64,000 bases of DNA from Candidatus Latescibacterota bacterium. Lineage in GTDB: Bacteria; Latescibacterota; UBA2968; UBA8231. The position numbers were made by a program, and so were the translations under genes. Under the pieces are notes generated by a model. It was not told where the DNA came from, searched no databases, and saw only the letters and a list, made by a program, of their open reading frames with translations. Where the stretch lies: assembly GCA_965223905.1 (NCBI GenBank), contig CBDCXV010000010.1, positions 448,001 to 512,000 on the forward strand, given 5' to 3'. This document shows positions 23,108 to 33,285 of the stretch, in pieces; positions within the stretch are counted from its first letter, which is position 1; the number at the start of each line of letters is the position of its first letter.

Positions 23108-23935
23108 ATGGATGAGGAACAGCGCTTCGCCTTCGACACCTGGGGATTCCTCACCGTAGAGAATGCGATTACCCCCGGGCAGGTTGCGGAGCTGAAGGCA
23201 ACCGTCGACGCAAAAGGCCCGGAGCTCCATTCGCAGCACGCCGACCGGGGCGGTTTCTGGTCCCAGGCGTTCGTCGATCTTCTGGACGTCCCGGTGATCT
23301 CCGAAATCCTGGAAGAGATATACGGGGGCGGACGGCCCGGAGGACTCCCTTCCTTTCGCATCGACCACATCAACGTCCACACCCACGGCACCTTCAACAA
23401 GGACCTCGCCGGGGGGCGCCTTCACGGCGGCAACGGTCGTCTGCTGAATCCCGGCCGCCCGCATGAGCTGACACCCATCTACTTCGCCCGCGATCCCGAG
23501 ACCGGAGCTTATTCCAACGGTCTGGTGACCGTGGCCTACGAGCTGGAGGACACCGTCTGCAACGGCGGCGGCTTCGGATGCCTGGCGGGCTCGCACAAGG
23601 GGCATCTCCCGGTCCCGGAAGCATGGATCGATCTGGCCAGGGGGGTGCATCCGATGGTCACCCGGGTGCCCGCCCCTGCCGGCACCGCCATCATCTTCAC
23701 CGAGGCCCTGTTCCACGTAACCCTGCCCTGGACGGCGCCGAGCACACGGACCACGCTTTTCTGCAAGTACACCGAGCGGGGGGAGGCCTACTCCGGACCC
23801 GACAACTTCTTCAGCCCGGCCGACGCCGACTCATGGGAAGGGGTCGACGAGCGCAAGCGCGCCATCCTGACGCCGCCGCCGCCGGAGTTCGTCGAGCGCA
23901 AGGCGGAGCTGGCCAGAATGACCGCGGTGCGGTAG
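23108..23935 (+). CDS. Phytanoyl-CoA dioxygenase (PhyH) family protein
   Basis: FDTWGFLTVENAI, LHGG, GFGCLAGSHKG, AGTAIIFTEALFH. Confidence 0.85.
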   Translation: MDEEQRFAFDTWGFLTVENAITPGQVAELKATVDAKGPELHSQHADRGGFWSQAFVDLLDVPVISEILEEIYGGGRPGGLPSFRIDHINVHTHGTFNKDLAGGRLHGGNGRLLNPGRPHELTPIYFARDPETGAYSNGLVTVAYELEDTVCNGGGFGCLAGSHKGHLPVPEAWIDLARGVHPMVTRVPAPAGTAIIFTEALFHVTLPWTAPSTRTTLFCKYTERGEAYSGPDNFFSPADADSWEGVDERKRAILTPPPPEFVERKAELARMTAVR

Positions 23936-23949
23936 TCGGCGCTTCGATT

Positions 23950-24800
23950 CTTTGGAGGGTACGGATTGGGCAATGGAGGACTGGTATGGCCCAGGTGTTT
24001 TTCCATTGGCCCATCATGTCCGCTATTTGGAGTGTTTCAGGCGGACTGGAACAGGCAATTGCCGCCAGGGTGAGCAAGGCGGATCCATACCCGAAGACAC
24101 AGGAACAAACGGTTCGGCTATGGTTCATACTAGTCGGCATGTGTTGATGTAGTCTGGTAGATAGCTTGGCTATATCATATAGTTCAAGACCGAACCCTAT
24201 CGTTTTTCCGGGAAAAAATCGGAGATGATACTTTGCTCCTGGTCATCCCAGATCAGCCGGTCAAATGGAGTGACGTAAAATTCCACTACACCGAAGTGCG
24301 GCTGACTGGAAACCACCGCACCGCCGCCATCGGCATAGGGTAGCTGGTGCATCCAGTCCGCATGTGGACTGCCCGGAAACAGAGGGACGTTGTTGTCGTT
24401 GTTATATGTTCCCGGAAACGCACTATACCATTGTGCCTGCTCCATCGGATATGTGAGCCCGGATGCATTGTCTATGAGCATCCCGGGGATCAGGATCACG
24501 CTCCAGTACTTCTCTTCCAGTCCCCGATCGTTGTAGGACGGTAACTTAGGCTGCCGGGCTGCGCGGCTTTTTCCGGCGCGGTTTCCCCTGGGAGACAGGG
24601 GGCCGCTGCTTCTCCTCTTCCTCTTCGCCGGTGGCGATCCGGCACACCTTCACGGCGCATCCGATCACGTCGGCAGGGCGCTTTTGGCCTTGGGGTCCAA
24701 TAGGCATCAGGGATGTCCCTCGAGGTGTCGATCAATAAGGGCAGCCAGAACTACCAGTGTCGGAACAATCACATCCCATTCCATCGCACGGATCTCCCGA
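23950..24800 (-). pseudogene. Fragmented paralogue of the 20058 secreted-protein family
   Basis: YADGGGAVV...VEFYVTPFD...ISDF aligns by eye with YGDAGGGVA...VEMYVTPQD...FSEL; several stops and frameshifts; boundaries approximate. Confidence 0.5.
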
Positions 24801-25039
24801 AAAGGATTGTTCTGAGTATTATAGAACAGGTATAGTCCCCGCGACCATTGCATTTCCTGGGAACCCGATCACGTCGGGTCCCCCCCTGAATACAACAGCC
24901 TGAAAACCCGGTGACGGGGTAACTCCCCGGAACCTGGCGAATAGGCGGGGTTGTCCCGTGTTCCTAGGGGTGCAATGGTCAGGCCCCTAGTAATACACGT
25001 GGCCCGATTCCTAGTGTATTGCGACCGAGTAGCATTCTT

Positions 25040-25531
25040 CGTCACAGCCCAATTACGGCCTTTTGATTCGGCGGAGCTGGCTGCCTATCTGAATTCCCTC
25101 CCTTACAGGCTGATGGTGTCTGAACTGGAGAGGATAGAGCGAGAAGCCAAAGTGTATTCAGTCCCTGTTTTCCTGGAACCCACCGCATTCGCCTTCGGTT
25201 CGGAGCGGGGAAGCGCACCCGGCCTGGGAGGCTGTTCACTTCCCCGGACGATTCCTGGATCGACAGAACGCGCCTGCTGGCGGCGAAGGTGGCCGAAGTG
25301 GAGGGGTCGAACTGGTCTGCCCGAGCGATCTACCGGATTCGATTGAACCGGCACGATCGCGAACAAGCGCATAAACTCATCGAGCAACGCGACCCATGGC
25401 GGCAGAGCTACCTGCGCAACTTCCACAACGCCGACTGGAACGACCCCCTGCTCTACGACCTGACGATCAACACCGGCAAAATAGATCGAGAGGACGCCGT
25501 CGATCTTCTCCCCGGCTTCTTAGCCGAGTAG
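25040..25531 (+). pseudogene. Cytidylate kinase-like family remnant
   Basis: RDPWRQSYLRNFHNADWNDPLLYDLTINTG; fragments in several frames. Confidence 0.55.
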
Positions 25532-25555
25532 GGGCGACCGGCCGGTCGCCCTTAC
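25528..25555. repeat. GTAG-type REP-like palindrome
   Basis: GTAGGGGCGACCGGCCGGTCGCCCTTAC, a near-perfect palindrome beginning with GTAG. Confidence 0.55.
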
Positions 25556-25630
25556 AGATCAAACGAACGAGGCACCGGCCGCCCCCGTGCCCCGTGTAAA
25601 CTCGCGTCGGAGGTCAGGTATCGGTGCATG

Positions 25631-25667
25631 AAAAAGCGCCCGATGCCAAGGAGACACCGGGCGCTTT
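25631..25667 (-). terminator. Intrinsic terminator of the FN3 gene
   Basis: Minus strand GCGCCCGGTG-loop-CATCGGGCGC followed by TTTTT, about 20 nt after the stop. Confidence 0.75.
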
Positions 25668-25687
25668 GCAGAGGTCGAGGACCGCGC

Positions 25688-27532
25688 CTACTTCAGGTAG
25701 AGCAGGCGCTGAGTCTGCACCCCGCCCGGATAGTGCAGGCGCACCAGGTACATCCCCGCCGACACCAACGCGCCGCGCCGGTCACGCGCATCCCAATGCA
25801 CTTGGTAGGCCCCGGCGGCCTGCACCTCGTCCACCAGCGTGCGCATGGACTGCCCGAGGAGGTTGTAGATCTCCAGGCGCACGGGGCCGTCCGCGGCCAG
25901 GCGATATGGGATGAGGGTGTTGGCGTTGAAGGGGTTGGGCGCGTTGGGCGCGAGGCCCGGCGGCCCGTCCGCGACCGCCGGCTTGGACGCCGGGGCCGCC
26001 GGCGTGTCGATGTGGTACCAGCGGGACCGCTCGCTCGCCCCGTGCTCGTTGATCGCCTTGATCCGATAGGTGTACGTGGTGCTGGCCGCCACCGTGGCGT
26101 CGGTGTAGGTGGTGGCGGCGCTGCCCGTGTCGGCGACCAATACACTGAAGTCGCCCCCGGTATTGTTCACGCGCACGCGGCGCAGGATCACGTAGCCGGT
26201 GATGGAGTCGTCGCCGGGATCGTCCCAGGTGAGGGTCACCGAGTTGTGCGACGCCGTGGCTTCGAGGCCCGTGGGCTTGGCGGGTACGGGCGCTGCCGGG
26301 GTGTCGATGTGGTACCAGCGGGAGCGTTCACTCGTTCCGGCCCCGTTGATGGCCTTGATCCGGTAGGTATAGCGAGTCTCCGCCGCCACCGTGTTGTCGG
26401 TGTAGGTGGTGGCGGCTGTGCCCGTGTCTGCCACCAGCTCATTGAAGTGGCCCTCCGGGTCGACTCCGGGAATGCGCCGCAGGATCACGTAGCCGGTGAT
26501 GGAGTCGTCGCCGGGGTCGTCCCAGGTGAGGGTCACCCGGTCGTGGGTCGCCGTGGCTTCAAGGCCCGTGGGCTTGTCCGGTGCGGAGCCCGGCTCCTCA
26601 CTTTGCTTCTTCTGCCCGGATTGCTTCTTCTGCCCGGACGAGTCCTCCCTCTCCTCGGACGAGGACTGGGTGCGGGGGGCTCTCTTCGTCTCCGACCAGT
26701 CGCCGTAGCCGTCGCCGCTCAGCGCCTGCACGCGGACCTCGTACCTGGTCTGCGCTTCAAGGTCCGTGCGCTTCACGCTGGTCGGAGGGCTGTCGCCGCA
26801 TCCCTTTCCGGTGCCGCGAGAGCCGGGATAGGACTGCTTGTTCCGATTCGTCTCACCGCTGGGGTGGAGGAACTCGACCAGGTAGCACTCGATAGGGAAG
26901 GTGCCCTCTTCGGCCTCATCCCAGCTCACCTCCAGGGTCCCGTCCTCGTCCCTCGGCGCCGTCACGCTCACGTTCTCCGGCGCCGACGGGAGCACGCGCT
27001 CGTACACCAGCGCCACCTTGACCTCGTCGTCCTCTTCCCAGTCGAGGTCGGGGTCGATAAAACCCCAAGCACCTACACCGCCACGACCGAAGTTCGCCAA
27101 CCGAAAGCTCGAGTTGCCGATCCAGAGCGTGATCTTCCCGACGTTGGTTCCGGGTGCATCTCCTAAATTATCCCCCTCAACATTGAGGAGCCTCGGACCA
27201 CCCAAATACAAAGCTTCCACTTCGAATTGATAGTCGGGGTCGAAGTGATGTTTGCCGGGCGGGGACCAGGGCGGGTAGTTGAACTTCGCGCTGGTGCTGA
27301 GTTCTCCCCATCCTTCGCTCTTGTGGTATCCAAGAAGGGCGCTGGCCTTCCCCACCGTCATGGTGGTGCGCCAGAGGTAGAAGTGAGTGTGCTCCGGGCC
27401 GTGGGGCCCGTCGTCGGGGGTATGGGCATCCACCTCGGAGAAGAGCAGGCCCAGCACGGTGCCCGCCACGGCCAGCGCGGCGATGGCGGCGAACAGGACG
27501 GGTAATCGTCGTCTATCGGTGCGAGTCAACAT
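25688..27532 (-). CDS. Exported fibronectin type III repeat protein with FlgD-like C-terminal domain
   Basis: N-terminal hydrophobic signal; three FN3 domains (PSAPENV...W...Y...VQAL; twice KPTGLEA...VTLTW...YTYRIKAIN); PNPFNANTLIPY...GMYLVRL tail; AGGAGG RBS. Confidence 0.9.
   Translation of the reverse strand: MLTRTDRRRLPVLFAAIAALAVAGTVLGLLFSEVDAHTPDDGPHGPEHTHFYLWRTTMTVGKASALLGYHKSEGWGELSTSAKFNYPPWSPPGKHHFDPDYQFEVEALYLGGPRLLNVEGDNLGDAPGTNVGKITLWIGNSSFRLANFGRGGVGAWGFIDPDLDWEEDDEVKVALVYERVLPSAPENVSVTAPRDEDGTLEVSWDEAEEGTFPIECYLVEFLHPSGETNRNKQSYPGSRGTGKGCGDSPPTSVKRTDLEAQTRYEVRVQALSGDGYGDWSETKRAPRTQSSSEEREDSSGQKKQSGQKKQSEEPGSAPDKPTGLEATATHDRVTLTWDDPGDDSITGYVILRRIPGVDPEGHFNELVADTGTAATTYTDNTVAAETRYTYRIKAINGAGTSERSRWYHIDTPAAPVPAKPTGLEATASHNSVTLTWDDPGDDSITGYVILRRVRVNNTGGDFSVLVADTGSAATTYTDATVAASTTYTYRIKAINEHGASERSRWYHIDTPAAPASKPAVADGPPGLAPNAPNPFNANTLIPYRLAADGPVRLEIYNLLGQSMRTLVDEVQAAGAYQVHWDARDRRGALVSAGMYLVRLHYPGGVQTQRLLYLK
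25985..26575 (-). repeat. Two tandem, highly similar FN3-coding repeats of about 297 bp
   Basis: Units 26279-26575 and 25985-26278 share TLTWDDPGDDSITGYVILRR and SERSRWYHIDTPAAP. Confidence 0.9.
26603..26638. repeat. Perfect 18-bp tandem duplication (SGQKKQ twice)
   Basis: TTGCTTCTTCTGCCCGGA twice. Confidence 0.9.
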
Positions 27533-27702
27533 GGTTCCTCCTTGTGCTGGTGCGGGGGTATGGGACGCAGCCCGTCCGCTCCGCAGGCGTAAGCCGATAG
27601 CGGCGCGGAGGGCGCGTGACAGCCGGGCAAGGATGTCGGACGACCCGCTGACTCGGCTGCCTGCCTAACTTCCACGTGGACCCTCCTACCGCTCGTGCTC
27701 GA

Positions 27703-27734
27703 TTGCTCCTGATAACAATAGTTATCGGGAGCAA
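27703..27734. other. Putative loxP-like recombination site L
   Basis: TTGCTCCTGATA-ACAATAGT-TATCGGGAGCAA: 12-bp inverted arms (1 mismatch) around an asymmetric 8-bp core, just upstream of the recombinase. Confidence 0.75.
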
Positions 27735-27780
27735 CCTCCTCCGGACGTATATCCTTGTCCCAAAGTCAGTTATGCCAATT

Positions 27781-28758
27781 ATGCCCGCAGGAGATGTGAC
27801 CGACCTTCCCGACCCGGCCACTTCCCGGTCACAAACCGGCGAGCGCCTGACCGAGTACCTGGGGGACGCCGATGGCGCCCTCAGCGGCAACACCGTGCGG
27901 GCGCTGAAAGCGGACCTGGAACGGTTCGCGGCGTGGTGCGCCGAGCGGGGGGTCGCTCCGCTGCCGGCGCGCCCGGCCACGCTGGTGGCCTACATCGAGG
28001 CGATGGCGAGCGAGCGCGCGCCGGCCACCGTGCGCCGCTACGTGTCGAGCATCGCCGCCGTGCACAAGGCGGCCGGGGAGCCCGGCCCGCTCGATCGCGT
28101 GACCGTGCGGCGGGCCCTACAGCGCATGCACCGGCGCAAGGGGTGCCGGCAGAGGCAGGTCAAGGGGCTGACCTGGACGCTCCGCCGGCGCCTGATGGAG
28201 GCTGCCGGCGACCGGGTGATCGACGTGCGGAACCGCGCCATCCTGGCCGTGGCCTACGACGCCATGCTCCGCCGCTCCGAGCTGGTCGCGCTGCAAGTCG
28301 TTGACGTGACGATGGATAGGAGCGGCTCGGCCTCGCTCCTCGTGCGTCGAGCGAAGACCGATCCGGAGGGCGGCGGCGCGATGCTCTACCTGCACCGCGA
28401 CAGCGTCAAGCTGCTCTCGGCGTGGCTGAGCGCGAGCGGCATCGCCGGCGGGCCGCTCTTCCGTTCCGTGCGCAAGGACGGCACGGTGGGCGGGAGGCTC
28501 GATGCGAGCCAGGTGCCGCGCATCTACAAGGGGATGGCCGAACGCGCCGGGCTGCCGGCGCGGATCGTTGGGCGGCTCTCCGGGCACAGTCCCCGCGTGG
28601 GCGCGGTTCAGGACATGATCGCCTCGGGGATCGGGACCCCGGCCATCATGCAGGCCGGACGCTGGAAGAGCGCCCAGATGGTGCAGCGCTACGGCGAGCG
28701 GCTGCTCGCCAAGCGGAATGGCGCCGCGCAGTTGGCACGGCTTCAGAAACGCGGATGA
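27781..28758 (+). CDS. Cre-like tyrosine recombinase (start at 27781 or 27796)
   Basis: N-terminal SAM-like domain (NTVRALKADLERFAAWC); catalytic set LRRSE, RAKTD, SGHSPRVG, AGRW, VQRYG. Confidence 0.92.
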   Translation: MPAGDVTDLPDPATSRSQTGERLTEYLGDADGALSGNTVRALKADLERFAAWCAERGVAPLPARPATLVAYIEAMASERAPATVRRYVSSIAAVHKAAGEPGPLDRVTVRRALQRMHRRKGCRQRQVKGLTWTLRRRLMEAAGDRVIDVRNRAILAVAYDAMLRRSELVALQVVDVTMDRSGSASLLVRRAKTDPEGGGAMLYLHRDSVKLLSAWLSASGIAGGPLFRSVRKDGTVGGRLDASQVPRIYKGMAERAGLPARIVGRLSGHSPRVGAVQDMIASGIGTPAIMQAGRWKSAQMVQRYGERLLAKRNGAAQLARLQKRG

Positions 28759-28804
28759 GCCCCGATGACGTCCAAGGCTTTCCGGTCACAAGATTTGCCG
28801 CAGG

Positions 28805-28836
28805 TAGCTCTCGATTACTATTGCTATCAGGAGCCA
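28805..28836. other. Putative loxP-like recombination site R, inverted relative to L
   Basis: TAGCTCTCGATT-ACTATTGC-TATCAGGAGCCA matches the reverse complement of site L at 27 of 32 positions. Confidence 0.7.
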
Positions 28837-29009
28837 ACTTGGAAAGTAAGCCATGTTGTGTGAGCTAAGTGTGACTTACGGGGCGAAAGCTCGTGACCAT
28901 TAGTGACTTCCCGCGCGAAACGCGCTATCCTCCACTCCCGCCCGGTCCGGCGGAAACGCGGCCGGACCGATCATTCGGAGCCCAGTGAGCTCCGCCTTAC
29001 CCTGCGGCA

Positions 29010-31370
29010 GTGAGTGGAGCATTGAACGATCCAGACCCGGCCGGTCCCGGGAGCGGCGCGTCCGGGGAGCGCATCTCGCGGCTGAGCGCGGCGATCCTGC
29101 GCATCAGCGCGAGCCTCGACCTGGCCACCGTGCTCAAGGAGGTGGTCGACAGCACCCGCGCTCTCACCGGCGCCCGGACCGGTGTCATCACGACGATCGA
29201 CGGGCGGGGACGGGTCCAGGACTTCGTCACCTCCGGCCTCGCCCCGGAGGAGCGCCGGAAGATGGTGGAGTGGCCCGACGGGCCGCGGCTCTTCGCGCAC
29301 CTGCGCGACCTCCCGGCGCCGCTCCGGGTGGCGGACGTGCAGGACTACCTTCGGTCGCTCGGCCTCTCCCCGAACCCGTGGGGCTCGAAGACGATGCAGG
29401 GGACCCCGATGCACCACCGGGGCGAGCATCTCGGCAGCTTCTTCCTGGCCGACAAGGAGGACGGCGAGGCGTTCACGAGCGAGGACGAGGAGATCCTCGT
29501 CCTGCTCGCCTCGCAGGCGGCGACGGCGATCGCCAACGCGCGCACGCACCGCGAGGTCGAGCGGGCGCGGGCCGACCTCGAGGCCCTGGTCGAGACCTCG
29601 CCGGTCGGCGTCGCGGTGTTCGACGCCGCAACCGGCCATCCGGTCTCGTTCAACCGCGAGGCGCGGCGCATCGTCGAGCGCCTCCGCACCCCCGGCCACC
29701 CCCCGGAGCAGCTGCTCGAGGTGATCACGTGCCGGCACGCCGACGGGCGGGAGGTCTCGCTCGACGAGCTTCCCCTGTCCCGCCAGCTCGGGAGCGCGAC
29801 GACGATGCGCGCCGAGGAAGTCGAACTCTCCGTGCCCGACGGACGGAGCGTCCGGACGCTCTTGAACGTCACGCCGATCCGTTCGGACGACGGAGGCGCC
29901 GTGTCGGTCGTCGTCACCATGCAGGACCTGGAACCACTCGAGGAACTGGAGCGGCAGCGGGCGGAGTTCCTCGGCATGGTGAGTCATGAACTGCGCGCCC
30001 CGCTCACCTCGATCAAGGGCTCGGCCGCGACCGTGCTGGACGCCGCCACGCTCCCGTCCCAGGCCGAGATGGTGCAGTTCTTCCGCATCATCGGCGGGCA
30101 GGCCGACCACATGCGGGGCCTCATCGCGAACCTGCTGGACGCGGGGAGCATCGAGGCGGGCACGCTCACCGTGCAGCCCGAGCCCTCGGACGTGGCGGTC
30201 CTGGTGGACCGGGCCCGCAACACGTTCCTGAGCGGCGGCGGCCGCCAGGCCGTCCTCATCGACCTGCCGCCGGACCTGCCGCCGGCGATGGCCGACCGCG
30301 AGCGCATCGTGCAGGTGCTGAACAACCTGCTCTCGAACGCGGCCCGGCACGCTCCGCCCTCGTCGCCGATCCGGGTCGAGGCGGGGCGCGAGGGCGGCTC
30401 CGTCGCGATCTCGGTCTCCGACGAGGGCCGGGGGATCCCGCCCGACGAGCTTCCGCATCTCTTCGGGAAGCCCGCCCGGCCGGCCGGAGGCACCGGGCTC
30501 GGGCTCGCGATCTGCAAGGGACTCGTCGAGGCGCACGGCGGCCGCATCCGCGCCGAGAGCGGGGGCACGGGCCAGGGCGCGCGCTTCACGTTCACGATCC
30601 CCGTGGCCGGGGAGGTCGCACCGGAAGCGGCCCCGCCCCGCGGCCCGACGCGTACGCCGGGGGAGGGGCGGGAGAAGACGCGCATCCTGGTCGTGGACGA
30701 CGACCCGCAGACGCTCCGCTACGTGCGGGACGTCCTCTCCGATGTGGGATACGCCCCGCTCGTCACGGGCGATCCGGACGGGCTGGGCGGCGTGATCCGC
30801 GCCGAGAAGCCCCGCCTCGTGCTCCTCGACCTCATGCTGCCGGGCACGGACGGGATCGAGCTGATGCGGCGGGTCCCGGAGTTGTCCGACCTCCCGGTCA
30901 TCTTCATCTCCGGGTACGGCCGCGACGAGACCATCGCCAGGGCGCTCGAGAGCGGCGCGGCCGACTACATCGTCAAGCCCTTCTCGCCGACCGAGCTCGT
31001 CGCCCGGGTGCAGGCGGCGCTGCGGAACAAGGCCCAGGCCGAAACCTTCGTGCTCGGGGAACTGGCCATCGATTACGGCCTGCGGCGCGTGAGCGTGGCC
31101 GGTCGCGCGGTCCCGCTCACGACCACGGAATACGAGCTGCTGCGCGTCCTGTCGGCGGGCGGCGGACGGGTCGTCACCACGGAGGCGCTCCTCCGGCAGG
31201 TGTGGGGGCGCCGCGGCTCGGACGACACCGACCGCGTGCGCACCGCCGTCAAGAAGCTCCGGGCCAAGCTCGGCGACGACGTCGCCAACCCGACCTACAT
31301 CTTCAACGAGCACGGGATCGGCTACCGCTTCGCGAGGCCGGGCAGGGCCCATGAGGCGGTAGCCGGCTGA
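29010..31370 (+). CDS. Cytoplasmic hybrid sensor kinase/response regulator (GAF-PAS-HisKA-HATPase-REC-OmpR wHTH)
   Basis: SHELRAPLTSI, NLLSNA, DEGRGI, GTGLGL, ILVVDDD, LDLMLPG, DYIVKPF, LTTTEYELL...GIGYRF; no transmembrane segment seen. Confidence 0.92.
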   Translation: MSGALNDPDPAGPGSGASGERISRLSAAILRISASLDLATVLKEVVDSTRALTGARTGVITTIDGRGRVQDFVTSGLAPEERRKMVEWPDGPRLFAHLRDLPAPLRVADVQDYLRSLGLSPNPWGSKTMQGTPMHHRGEHLGSFFLADKEDGEAFTSEDEEILVLLASQAATAIANARTHREVERARADLEALVETSPVGVAVFDAATGHPVSFNREARRIVERLRTPGHPPEQLLEVITCRHADGREVSLDELPLSRQLGSATTMRAEEVELSVPDGRSVRTLLNVTPIRSDDGGAVSVVVTMQDLEPLEELERQRAEFLGMVSHELRAPLTSIKGSAATVLDAATLPSQAEMVQFFRIIGGQADHMRGLIANLLDAGSIEAGTLTVQPEPSDVAVLVDRARNTFLSGGGRQAVLIDLPPDLPPAMADRERIVQVLNNLLSNAARHAPPSSPIRVEAGREGGSVAISVSDEGRGIPPDELPHLFGKPARPAGGTGLGLAICKGLVEAHGGRIRAESGGTGQGARFTFTIPVAGEVAPEAAPPRGPTRTPGEGREKTRILVVDDDPQTLRYVRDVLSDVGYAPLVTGDPDGLGGVIRAEKPRLVLLDLMLPGTDGIELMRRVPELSDLPVIFISGYGRDETIARALESGAADYIVKPFSPTELVARVQAALRNKAQAETFVLGELAIDYGLRRVSVAGRAVPLTTTEYELLRVLSAGGGRVVTTEALLRQVWGRRGSDDTDRVRTAVKKLRAKLGDDVANPTYIFNEHGIGYRFARPGRAHEAVAG

Positions 31371-31419
31371 CGTTCAGGGATACCGTGCGAGCGGGAAGCG
31401 AGTGTCGAGGATCCCGGAT

Positions 31420-31707
31420 CTCACTCCCGGTCCACCGCGGGAGCGCGCCGGAAGGCCCACAGACAGATCAGGAAGGCGGCGGCGGTCTCCACCAGCAGGA
31501 TGGAGATGGGGCCACCCCGGCGATCTGTCGGGTCGAGGCGGTCAGGAAGACCGCGGTCAGCAGGTCGCGGAAGGGAGCGCCGGGAGCGCGGGGTCGAAGC
31601 GGCGGGCGCGGGCTTCGGAGTAGAGGTGGAGGAGAACGGCGACTCCGCCGGTCAGGCCCAGAATCAGACCGCAGGAGATCAGTACTGCAGGCTTGCGGGA
31701 GGTCATG
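31420..31707 (-). pseudogene. Degraded small membrane-protein gene
   Basis: MTSRKPAVLISCGLILGLTGGVAVLLHL... ends at an early stop; further hydrophobic fragments in other frames. Confidence 0.3.
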
Positions 31708-32076
31708 CCATCCAGCTCCACCTTACAATACAATAGAAAGGATCACCCCGGCTTCGCTTCGCCGACCTCCCGACCTTGCCCCCCGCGCTTGCCGGTGGTG
31801 ACCAAGGTGAGGAACACCTTGCAGAGGGGGGGGCGAAAGTCAAGGGGTTTATTTCAATTTTACCTTGTTACAATCAGGTGAAATTTCCAGGTGAAATCTC
31901 GTCGGGCGACGGATGGGGCTGACGGCCATCTACCCTCCGGCTCCCCCATCCCGGCGATCTAGCGGCCGAATCAGGTGTGGTGCGCGAACCTGCCCTACAT
32001 TTCGATGCAACGAGGTTTCACTATCTGGCGGCGATGAACCCGCCTCTACCACCCACCACCCTGGCATTCGGTGCCC

Positions 32077-33285
32077 ATGAAATCCCACACTGAAATCGAA
32101 GGCGTCCCGGTCTGGGGGAAACCCCTCGACAACGCGGTAAGGCAGATCGTCAACTGCGCCCGCAGCGCCGAGCACGCCGCCCTCATGGCCGACCACCATC
32201 TCGGCTACGCCATGCCGATCGGCGGGGTGGCCGCCTACCGCGACGCCGTCAGCCCCTCCGGGGTCGGCTACGACATCAGCTGCGGCAACAAGGCGGTCCT
32301 GCTCGACGCCGATCCCGATCTCGTCGCCTCCGAAACCGGACCCATCATGGACGAGATCTGGGAGACCCTCTCCTTCGGCATCGGCCGCAGGAACGACGAA
32401 CCGGTGGAGCACGTGCTGTTCCGCGACGATCCCGCCTGGGACATCGACGTCGCGGCAAAGCTGAAATCCCTGGCGCAAAGCCAGCTGGGGACCATCGGCT
32501 CGGGCAATCACTACGTCGATCTCTTCCTCGACGAGGAACGGCGCGTCTGGTGCGGGGTGCACTTCGGCTCGCGCGGCCTCGGCCACAAGCTGGCGACCCA
32601 TTTCATCAAGGCGGGCGGCGGCAAAGAGGGAATCGACGTCGATCCCGTGCTCCTCGGCACCGGCTCCCAGCTCGGCCAGGAGTACGTCGCCTGCATGAAG
32701 CTCGCCGGCCGCTACGCCTATGCCGGCCGCGACTGGGTGTGCGCCAAGGTCGCCTCCCTGCTGCACTGCAACATCGTCGCGGAGGTGCACAACCACCACA
32801 ACTTCGCTTGGGAGGAAGAGCATTTCGGCGAGAAGCTGTGGATCGTGCGCAAGGGGGCCACCCCCGCCTTTCCCGGGCAGCGCGGCTTCATCGGCGGCTC
32901 CATGGGAGACATCTCCGTGATCGTCGAGGGGGTCGACGGCGAAGAGAGCGCCAAGTCCATGTACTCCACCGTTCACGGCGCCGGGCGGGTGATGTCGAGA
33001 ACCGCGGCCGCGGGCAAGCGGCGCTGGAAACGGGCGCGGCGCAAGGCCGGGAAGAAACAGATGCAGGTCAAGGCGGGCGCCATCAGCCGCGAGATGATGA
33101 TGGAATGGGTTTCGCGGGAAGGGGTGGTGCTGCGCGGGGCCGGAACGGATGAATCGCCCCATTGCTACAAGCGCCTTCCGGAAGTGTTGGAGTATCACTC
33201 CGCGGGGATTCGCATCCTGCACACCCTCAAACCGATCGGGGTGGCGATGGCCGGGGCGAACGAGTACGACCCGTTCCGCGACTGA
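32077..33285 (+). CDS. rtcB: RtcB RNA ligase
   Basis: MADHHLGY.MPIGG, VGYDISCG, LGTIGSGNHY, HFGSRGLG, HNHHN, RKGATPA, HGAGR, DESPHCYK. Confidence 0.95.
   Translation: MKSHTEIEGVPVWGKPLDNAVRQIVNCARSAEHAALMADHHLGYAMPIGGVAAYRDAVSPSGVGYDISCGNKAVLLDADPDLVASETGPIMDEIWETLSFGIGRRNDEPVEHVLFRDDPAWDIDVAAKLKSLAQSQLGTIGSGNHYVDLFLDEERRVWCGVHFGSRGLGHKLATHFIKAGGGKEGIDVDPVLLGTGSQLGQEYVACMKLAGRYAYAGRDWVCAKVASLLHCNIVAEVHNHHNFAWEEEHFGEKLWIVRKGATPAFPGQRGFIGGSMGDISVIVEGVDGEESAKSMYSTVHGAGRVMSRTAAAGKRRWKRARRKAGKKQMQVKAGAISREMMMEWVSREGVVLRGAGTDESPHCYKRLPEVLEYHSAGIRILHTLKPIGVAMAGANEYDPFRD

Follow-up and report, generated by a model that had tools for sequence, protein, structure and literature searches.

Can a recombinase gene turn itself around in the chromosome, and in doing so decide whether the surface-protein gene beside it is expressed? 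The question is raised by a locus in a 64,000-nucleotide (nt) stretch of DNA from a Candidatus Latescibacterota bacterium (GenBank assembly GCA_965223905.1, contig CBDCXV010000010.1, positions 448,001 to 512,000; herein referred to as the window), in which a gene for a Cre-like tyrosine recombinase lies by itself between two inverted loxP-like sites, L and R, flanked on one side by a gene for a surface protein and on the other by a gene for a hybrid sensor kinase and response regulator. An earlier annotation made from the letters and open reading frames alone (herein the sequence-only reading) had proposed a self-inverting switch between these two neighbours. On the strength of comparative sequence analysis, we consider it highly probable (roughly 0.85–0.9) that L and R are genuine sites that function as partners for a Cre-type recombinase, which uses them to invert its own gene; that this inversion is an on/off switch for the adjacent surface-protein gene is probable at about 0.6. 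The cassette consists of the following parts, in amino acids (aa) and base pairs (bp).

27703–27734: site L ("UP"), TTGCTCCTGATA-ACAATAGT-TATCGGGAGCAA, a 12-bp arm, an 8-bp core (ACAATAGT) and a second 12-bp arm.
27735–27771, plus strand: spacer of 37 nt between L and the recombinase ATG, with a conserved GACGTATATC-TTGT block; candidate promoter or leader of the recombinase, travelling with the cassette.
27772–28758, plus strand: intact tyrosine recombinase of 328 aa, with Pfam domains PF00589 (Phage_integrase) and PF02899 (N-terminal SAM-like).
28805–28836: site R ("DN"), TAGCTCTCGATT-ACTATTGC-TATCAGGAGCCA, with core ACTATTGC, inverted relative to L.

The coordinates and letters first given for L and R were confirmed by a check of the sequence, and the inverted match reported between them was recomputed with the same value: the reverse complement of R is identical to L at 27 of 32 positions, against 23/32 in direct orientation. 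The two arms of L are complementary at 11 of 12 positions, and a repeat search finds no inverted repeat in the region longer than the one that L and R form (33 nt, 88% complementary, spacing 1064 nt). When the window was searched with L at up to three mismatches, L itself was the sole match (0 expected, from 100 shuffles), and a scan of the 7.9-Mb genome at up to nine mismatches to L, R and their complements returned only L and R and an identical second pair 1.17 Mb off. As the sequence-only reading stated, the cores share seven of eight bases; the odd base is core position 1, outside the central 6 bp, which are identical between both sites (CAATAG in L, 27716–27721; the complement CTATTG in R, 28818–28823). 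R is indeed more degenerate than L, yet it keeps these central 6 bp and 23 of the 24 consensus arm positions. The recombinase gene, running from the ATG at 27772 to the stop codon that ends at 28758, was likewise found to be all that the two sites enclose.

By its sequence, its residues and the design of its sites, the enzyme is a Cre-type recombinase. Among proteins of solved structure Cre comes closest to it (E 8e-30, residues 12–317), and the best chain other than Cre is XerD, at 2e-4. The R-K-HxxR-W-Y set described earlier as intact is borne out by the alignment, in which R167, K195, H272, R275, W298 and Y307 fall on the catalytic set of Cre, and by the invariance of these residues in 19 aligned homologues. 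Two other occupations of tyrosine recombinases were considered and rejected: Xer/dif dimer resolution does not fit two sites per gene, up to seven gene copies per genome and the weak similarity to XerD, and the part of a prophage or integrative-element integrase does not fit sites that are inverted, 1.1 kb apart and not at the bounds of the transferred unit. The GACGTATATC-TTGT block of the spacer is conserved across homologous loci compared in register, and the spacer (27735–27771) is a candidate recombinase promoter, for which a consensus scan gave no match there. The genome (G000) also encodes six more Cre-like paralogues at 32–36% identity (C10:45327–46169, C9:419239–420102, C9:475065–475907, C9:787892–788725, C11:195889–196728 and C11:382045–382902), most with an upstream palindrome of their own and no downstream partner seen; one such palindrome, ATCCCGTACCG-GTACT-CGGTACGGGAA, is present in three near-identical copies.

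Because no relative in its own phylum has the recombinase (at E 1e-60 or 1e-80, neither 40 relatives nor the 167 remaining genomes of the phylum gave a match), the comparison was centred on the order of G168, the genome that holds the nearest relative of the locus and is labelled Longimicrobiales. Among 301 genomes of that order, 21 have the recombinase, with 41 matches in total and at most seven per genome; all 41 were analysed with 5-kb flanks and, with the two copies of this genome, give 43 instances. A site stands on each side of the recombinase, always inverted, in 41 of the 43 (39/41 outside this genome), the exceptions being two truncated cassettes, G416circ and L043. The upstream site lies about 68 nt 5' of the ATG in 38 of the 43 instances, and 35 combine this position with a downstream site 50–231 nt past the stop codon (50–314 nt across related loci). 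Six further instances have both sites, one of which is displaced or degenerate: it was pushed off by an IS66-family element in L044 and by an IS256-family element in L064, and displaced by 2.2 kb of extra DNA in L058; the recombinase match of L050 is truncated, and its upstream site hence falls beyond the search range; and the sites of L046 and L073 are too degenerate for the first-pass filter. The identical bracket layout is shown by 12 of 17 metagenome loci. Both sites, their inverted orientation and the kinds of flanking gene, whose constancy the sequence-only reading had singled out as informative, are conserved in homologous loci. In one subclade a run of T follows the downstream site (L006, 6068–6105), which the scan calls terminator-like, and the downstream site might there double as an RNA hairpin.

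Conservation of a bracket is accompanied by a positional pattern in how the two partners differ. From the 35 loci with adjacent sites, 29 distinct site pairs were obtained, and mismatches between partners were counted by position over these pairs.

Outer arm: 42 mismatches.
Core position 1: 10 mismatches.
Central 6 bp of the core: 0 mismatches of 174 positions.
Core position 8: 2 mismatches.
Inner arm: 33 mismatches.

The arms together thus hold 75 mismatches and the two outer core positions 12, and the central 6 bp are also identical within the six displaced or degenerate pairs and, as read from the sites, within 13 metagenome loci. Twenty different core sequences occur, and identity between a core and the partner of another locus averages 4.58/8. 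In Cre-type enzymes, strands are exchanged within the central 6 bp of the spacer, and the partners have to be identical there. Since the central 6 bp are matched within loci and the cores have diverged between them, L-type and R-type sites appear to have recombined with one another throughout the history of the family; the pattern is as expected of the central 6-bp crossover region of a Cre-type enzyme and points to such a region here, as predicted from covariation. Across loci it is the crossover region that co-varies between L and R partners. The further idea that copies within one genome always differ in their crossover sequence was rejected, as G421 has three copies with CTGTAG and four with TTGTAG. 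Mismatch-by-position analysis of this kind offers a way to locate the crossover region of a recombinase from genomes alone.

Inversion has also left a direct trace in natural genomes. Compared between the orthologous loci L050 (genome G416) and L064 (genome G345), the cassette is inverted relative to both flanks, with identities of 98.1% over 4 kb of the surface gene, 98.6% on the kinase side and 96.5% in the cassette itself. Junctions predicted from L050's own sites match G416circ at 112/112 positions, and match L064 at 111/112 on the kinase side and at 104/112 at the other junction; unrecombined control arrangements match at just 74–83/112. The sequence-only reading had proposed looking for both orientations with breakpoints inside the sites, and this is what the two orthologous loci present, as a difference between genomes. 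At the origin of G416:C1 (the end of L059 and the start of L051), a recombinase copy spans the start of the circular record and is rearranged at or near the downstream site, with the 3' end of a trbI-like gene in place of its last residues.

What an inversion would accomplish depends on the flanking genes, whose identities and outward directions agree with the first description: an fn3 gene on the minus strand and a kinase-regulator gene on the plus strand.

25688–27532, minus strand: surface protein of 614 aa with fn3 and FlgD_ig domains (Pfam), reading away from L.
29010–31370, plus strand: hybrid sensor kinase/response regulator of 786 aa, with Pfam domains GAF, PAS, HisKA, HATPase_c, Response_reg and Trans_reg_C.

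We hypothesize that the recombinase occupies all four 12-bp arms, brings L and R together and carries out strand exchange within the central 6 bp of the core, and would thereby flip its own gene as a 1.1-kb cassette. In the common orientation, that of the window and of almost all relatives, the recombinase reads toward the kinase-regulator gene and the surface gene would face DNA without a promoter; the DNA just inside its end of the cassette is the 5' leader of the recombinase, directed the opposite way. Once inverted, the cassette would have its 3' end facing the surface gene; read-through would create an operon of recombinase and surface gene, to which an outward promoter may add transcription in some lineages, and the outcome would be on/off (phase-variable) expression of the surface gene. 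We infer which orientation turns the surface gene on, the positions of the promoters and any control by the kinase-regulator.

The arrangement of the left neighbours across the family argues for such a switch. The left gene points outward in 38 of the 43 instances. Domains of the fn3, Calx-beta, cadherin, CARDB or bacterial Ig kinds were found in eight of the ten left neighbours that were scanned, many of them longer than 1,600 aa; the other two are a protein without a family and a hexapeptide transferase. Gene starts were placed by a heuristic, namely a leftward frame of at least 150 aa that begins no more than 300 nt from the site and has a Shine-Dalgarno-like motif before its start, which was applied to 39 loci (G416circ, whose left gene is the kinase gene, was omitted). 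A start of this description was found in 29 of the 39, and in 23 of these 29 it lies 14–70 nt from the site, too close for a promoter to fit outside the cassette, so that transcripts would have to enter through the site from within.

A relative with a different layout leads in the same direction. In L097, a metagenome contig whose recombinase is 56% identical, the recombinase gene lies outside a segment of about 390 bp (2143–2531) that is bounded by inverted sites of the same kind as those of the cassette, with matching central 6 bp; the segment stands directly upstream of a 689-aa fn3/Ig/SWM-repeat gene and holds a promoter-like element, which in the present state faces the opposite direction from that gene. 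This layout, represented by one contig only, resembles that of a classical invertible promoter and supports reading the inversion as a switch.

Beyond the sites, the following elements around the 3' end of the cassette and the kinase gene are relevant to transcription.

28766–28794, plus strand: weak promoter-like element at the 3' cassette end, facing outward (TGACGT-17-CAAGAT), read by eye in register.
28903–28931, plus strand: promoter-like element of the kinase gene, outside the cassette, GTGACT-17-TATCCT, under the threshold of the consensus scan.
28930–29019, plus strand: structured leader of the kinase gene, with a fold energy of -47.8 kcal/mol and a z-score of -3.6.

Some homologues have a stronger outward element in this place, as does L006 with TTGACT-16-TATCTT, 16 nt before the downstream site, where it is the sole match in 1.7 kb (0.0 expected), and similar outward motifs are visible by eye in other loci; these placements by eye have geometries that are inconsistent between subclades, and we claim no precise promoter for the window. 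On the kinase side, the leader is 170–250 nt long, and an alignment of 22 distinct leaders shows a conserved GTGACTt-N16/17-TAT(C/T)CT. The outer stem of the leader, CTCCACTCC...GGAGTGGAG, is conserved as well, with the 3' arm GGAGTGGAG abutting the start codon, and the hairpin may be a translational control element; an Rfam search of 27400–29200 returned a single chance-level match and no family for this hairpin. The motif GTGAC/GTCAC recurs, in the window at 28789, 28871, 28903 and 27627 among others: it occurs three times in the kinase leader, about 20 nt before R, left of L and, in relatives, near the recombinase start; these are candidate binding sites of the OmpR-type domain.

Several observations weigh against the proposed switch or against its frequent use. 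One orientation dominates, being found in 31 of the 33 kinase-linked instances (the kinase homologue is downstream on the same strand in 31 of the 43, upstream on the opposite strand in two and missing in ten). Both inverted instances carry a damaged recombinase: in L064 its 5' end is interrupted by an IS256-family transposase gene, and in G416circ the end of a trbI-like gene has taken the place of its 3' end. With their recombinases damaged, L064 and G416circ are therefore frozen states; they probably trace to a single event, and the L050 lineage has a stop at codon 7 of the recombinase. Switching may accordingly be rare or strongly biased. Seven public sequencing runs contain the stretch, and the contigs of four, all short assembled contigs, were examined; they bridge L (27696–27862) and R (28677–28948) in the reference orientation only, and no strand-switch joints are listed in the assembled contigs of 100–270 nt from these four runs, which is weak evidence because contigs drop rare variants. 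The window itself is a weak example. Between L and the start of its surface gene lie 170 nt, enough to hold a separate promoter for that gene, and a promoter and terminator consensus scan of 27400–29100 gave no match (nor did a promoter scan of L061), the start-to-site distances of other loci rest on an ad hoc heuristic, and R is partly degenerate, with one arm ending in GATT rather than GATA and an arm-to-arm match of 8/12. Finally, the kinase gene has a promoter-like element of its own and therefore need not depend on the orientation of the cassette. The sequence-only reading held that flipping redirects transcription from the regulator to the surface protein; the second half of that proposal is retained here, and the loss of transcription to the regulator has become less likely.

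The recombinase and kinase module is not native to its genome, and its history bears on how the cassette is to be understood. Two nested units can be delimited.

27617–31510, plus strand: module made up of L, the recombinase gene, R, the kinase leader and the kinase-regulator gene; 3,894 bp with sharp ends.
23917–32077: island of 8.2 kb with the surface gene, the cassette and the kinase-regulator gene, in place of which G001, a genome of the same genus, has 41 bp.

A second copy of the module, 99.67% identical, lies 1.17 Mb away on the same contig (G000:C10:1641711–1645604; L001 9915–13808), where its left neighbour is a different fn3 protein of 911 aa that has only the C-terminal part in common with the first. 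Identity to G168, at 87% of nucleotides, begins exactly at 27617, and contigs of four public runs show loose ends at 27616–27618; a check of the module ends revealed neither target duplications nor terminal repeats. The flanks of the island align with G001 at 91–93%, and in G002, of the same genus, synteny is lost at 24480 and resumes at 31508. The left 1.8 kb of the island (23917–25687, GC 0.573) has short open frames only and no Pfam match. The module has a GC content of 0.709 compared with 0.63 for the rest of the window, and of the roughly 2,000 protein homologues seen, those at 70–92% identity are numerous, the named ones belonging to Candidatus Palauibacter or Gemmatimonadales. Native paralogues of the kinase-regulator, on C2 (67%) and C9 (59%), have no recombinase or site upstream, and no empty-site form was found there. 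Judged by these comparisons, the module was acquired horizontally and was duplicated in this genome.

The surface gene may have a mixed origin. Over residues 47–285 the 614-aa protein shares 61% identity with the protein on the left of a homologous Longimicrobiales cassette (L033/L048), and its last 270 nt (25688–25957), encoding the FlgD_ig-like C-terminal domain, have dozens of copies at 71–76% in two same-genus genomes; the gene may be a chimera of a transferred N-terminal part and a C-terminal sorting domain of the host type. Beyond the module, G168 has three small genes, then an ArdC-like gene and a type IV secretion cluster with a VirB4-like ATPase, CagX, TrbI, TrbL, a coupling protein and AlpA (L083 7299–18919, L004 8617–10974). 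ArdC and its small neighbours also stand beside four other loci, and a coupling-protein gene stands beside two; conjugation genes lie within 5 kb in about 6 of the 43 instances. From the conjugation genes of the donors it follows that at least part of the family rides on conjugative elements, which fits transfer across phyla; none of the ArdC and conjugation neighbour genes of the donors was found in this genome. The recombinase is not the integrase of these elements, because its sites are inverted and only 1.1 kb apart.

How firmly the switch can be upheld is decided by comparison with other accounts of the same cassette. It might invert without switching the surface gene, tuning instead the expression of the recombinase or read-through to the kinase leader, or serving no function at all, with the sites kept alike by recombination. 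Inversion itself is well supported, and this account can further appeal to the lack of a detected promoter in the window cassette, to the space beside the window surface gene where a promoter of its own could fit, to the kinase gene's own promoter-like element and to the one orientation shared by nearly all loci. Left genes that nevertheless point outward in 38 of 43 instances and mostly start within 70 nt of the site would be hard to explain if they were unaffected, and L097 puts the same sites, as a small invertible element, before an fn3/Ig gene; we regard inversion without a switch as an unlikely, if serious, competitor. It is also conceivable that the sites serve the mobile element that carries them, through multimer resolution, integration or exchange of cassettes between copies on a conjugative element and on the chromosome, and that inversion is a by-product. 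Such an origin would suit the module of G168 beside ArdC and type IV secretion genes, the four more loci that ArdC flanks, a module that has crossed phyla and attained up to seven copies per genome, and the G416circ junction, which could stem from recombination between two copies. However, resolution or integration needs one site or direct repeats, whereas the bracket is inverted in 41 of 43 instances, and only recombination between partners requires a shared central 6 bp amid diverging cores; the duplicated or transferred unit is moreover not bounded by L and R, and conjugation genes are near only about 6 of the 43 instances and absent here, so that we hold this account to be improbable.

Two further alternatives concern the status of the cassette rather than its mode of action. 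In this genome it could be a locked relic, foreign and with a degenerate R, that has lost the ability to switch. Its foreignness is plain from the GC content and from its absence from G001 and the other 167 genomes of the phylum, the arms of R match each other at only 8 of 12 positions, and the contigs of four runs contain no inverted junction. A relic is nonetheless quite improbable in our view, given that both copies keep an intact recombinase of 328 aa with two residue differences between them, that L and R are identical between the copies, and that the central 6 bp match and R retains nearly all of its consensus arm positions. The small gene flanked by inverted repeats and the multiple copies in several genomes could also suggest an insertion-sequence-like element with L and R as its terminal inverted repeats. 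Here the evidence is set most heavily against the alternative, which we think very improbable: the repeated unit runs 86 nt past L and 2.7 kb past R, the cassette is never found between unrelated genes and the kinds of its neighbours are constant, each end is a two-armed recombinase site with an asymmetric core, and the ends of the module have no target-site duplication. A phase switch for the surface gene, operated by inversion of the recombinase gene between L and R, thus remains our preferred reading.

Should this switch be confirmed, it would point to phase variation in marine lineages of the Longimicrobiales type, none of which turned up in the literature searches, and in a genome of another phylum that acquired the module. 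Some donor loci lie beside conjugation genes, and the switch may there act on an adhesin for mating or attachment. We tentatively extend the proposal, as a conjecture of rather low probability, to all three genes, which would form a transferable sense-flip-display unit on conjugative elements: the flip would join the recombinase transcript to a promoterless giant adhesin-like gene, and the GAF-PAS regulator, likely through the motif GTGAC in its own leader and at both inner cassette ends, would couple flipping or output to a signal. If this were true, an adhesin for mating or host attachment would be under a programmable phase switch that has spread across phyla. The family could also serve as a natural collection of Cre/lox-like pairs, with 20 or more different spacers among them, and its dozens of natural recombinase and site pairs, in which arms and 6-bp crossover have co-diverged, are candidate orthogonal tools for genome engineering.

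Among known systems, Cre/loxP of phage P1 shares with the cassette a site of two inverted arms and an asymmetric 8-bp spacer, the position of a site beside the gene and the same catalytic residues. In P1, Cre and loxP serve circularisation and dimer resolution through a single site. The arms here are 12 bp rather than 13, and two inverted sites bracket the gene, in a geometry that allows inversion only. Vika and Dre are further Cre-type recombinases. For genes of this type, a search for single palindromes has found such sites within 1 kb (PMC10250229); in the parts of that article that were accessible paired inverted sites are not mentioned, and its supplementary lists may include this family (PMC10250229).

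The FimB/FimE switch at fimS and RecV of C. difficile also have a tyrosine recombinase that flips a short segment beside a gene for a surface structure, a layout identical to that of L097. There, however, the recombinases are encoded beyond the inverted segment, act on short inverted repeats and require host factors, whereas the cassette encloses its recombinase gene between complete two-armed, lox-like sites. The Rci shufflon, too, has a tyrosine recombinase, on a conjugative element, and some of the present loci lie beside conjugation genes. It rearranges the coding ends of pilV through several sites, with rci outside the shufflon, whereas here there is a single pair of sites, outside any long open frame of the surface gene. 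In the shufflon of IncI plasmids, inversion varies a surface adhesin for mating (PMC9045228). Flp/FRT of the yeast 2-micron plasmid comes close in geometry. Flp inverts a segment that holds its own gene, between inverted sites within 599-bp repeats, in the service of copy-number control; it is a device of a eukaryotic plasmid, and the enzyme described here is no close relative of it.

By analogy, the nearest functional precedent is Hin/hix of Salmonella, where the recombinase gene likewise lies inside an invertible segment beside a surface-protein gene, the outward promoter being presumed in our case. Hin needs an enhancer and Fis, and it is a serine recombinase, in contrast to the Cre-type tyrosine recombinase with lox-like sites found here. 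Hin has been cited as an example of a recombinase within its own invertible segment (PMC5903667). A full-text literature search returned no description of a Cre-type enzyme inside its own inverted lox-like sites together with a giant surface gene and a one-protein two-component system. Inversion switches as such are known; what is new is the layout, in which a Cre-type enzyme sits within its own inverted sites.

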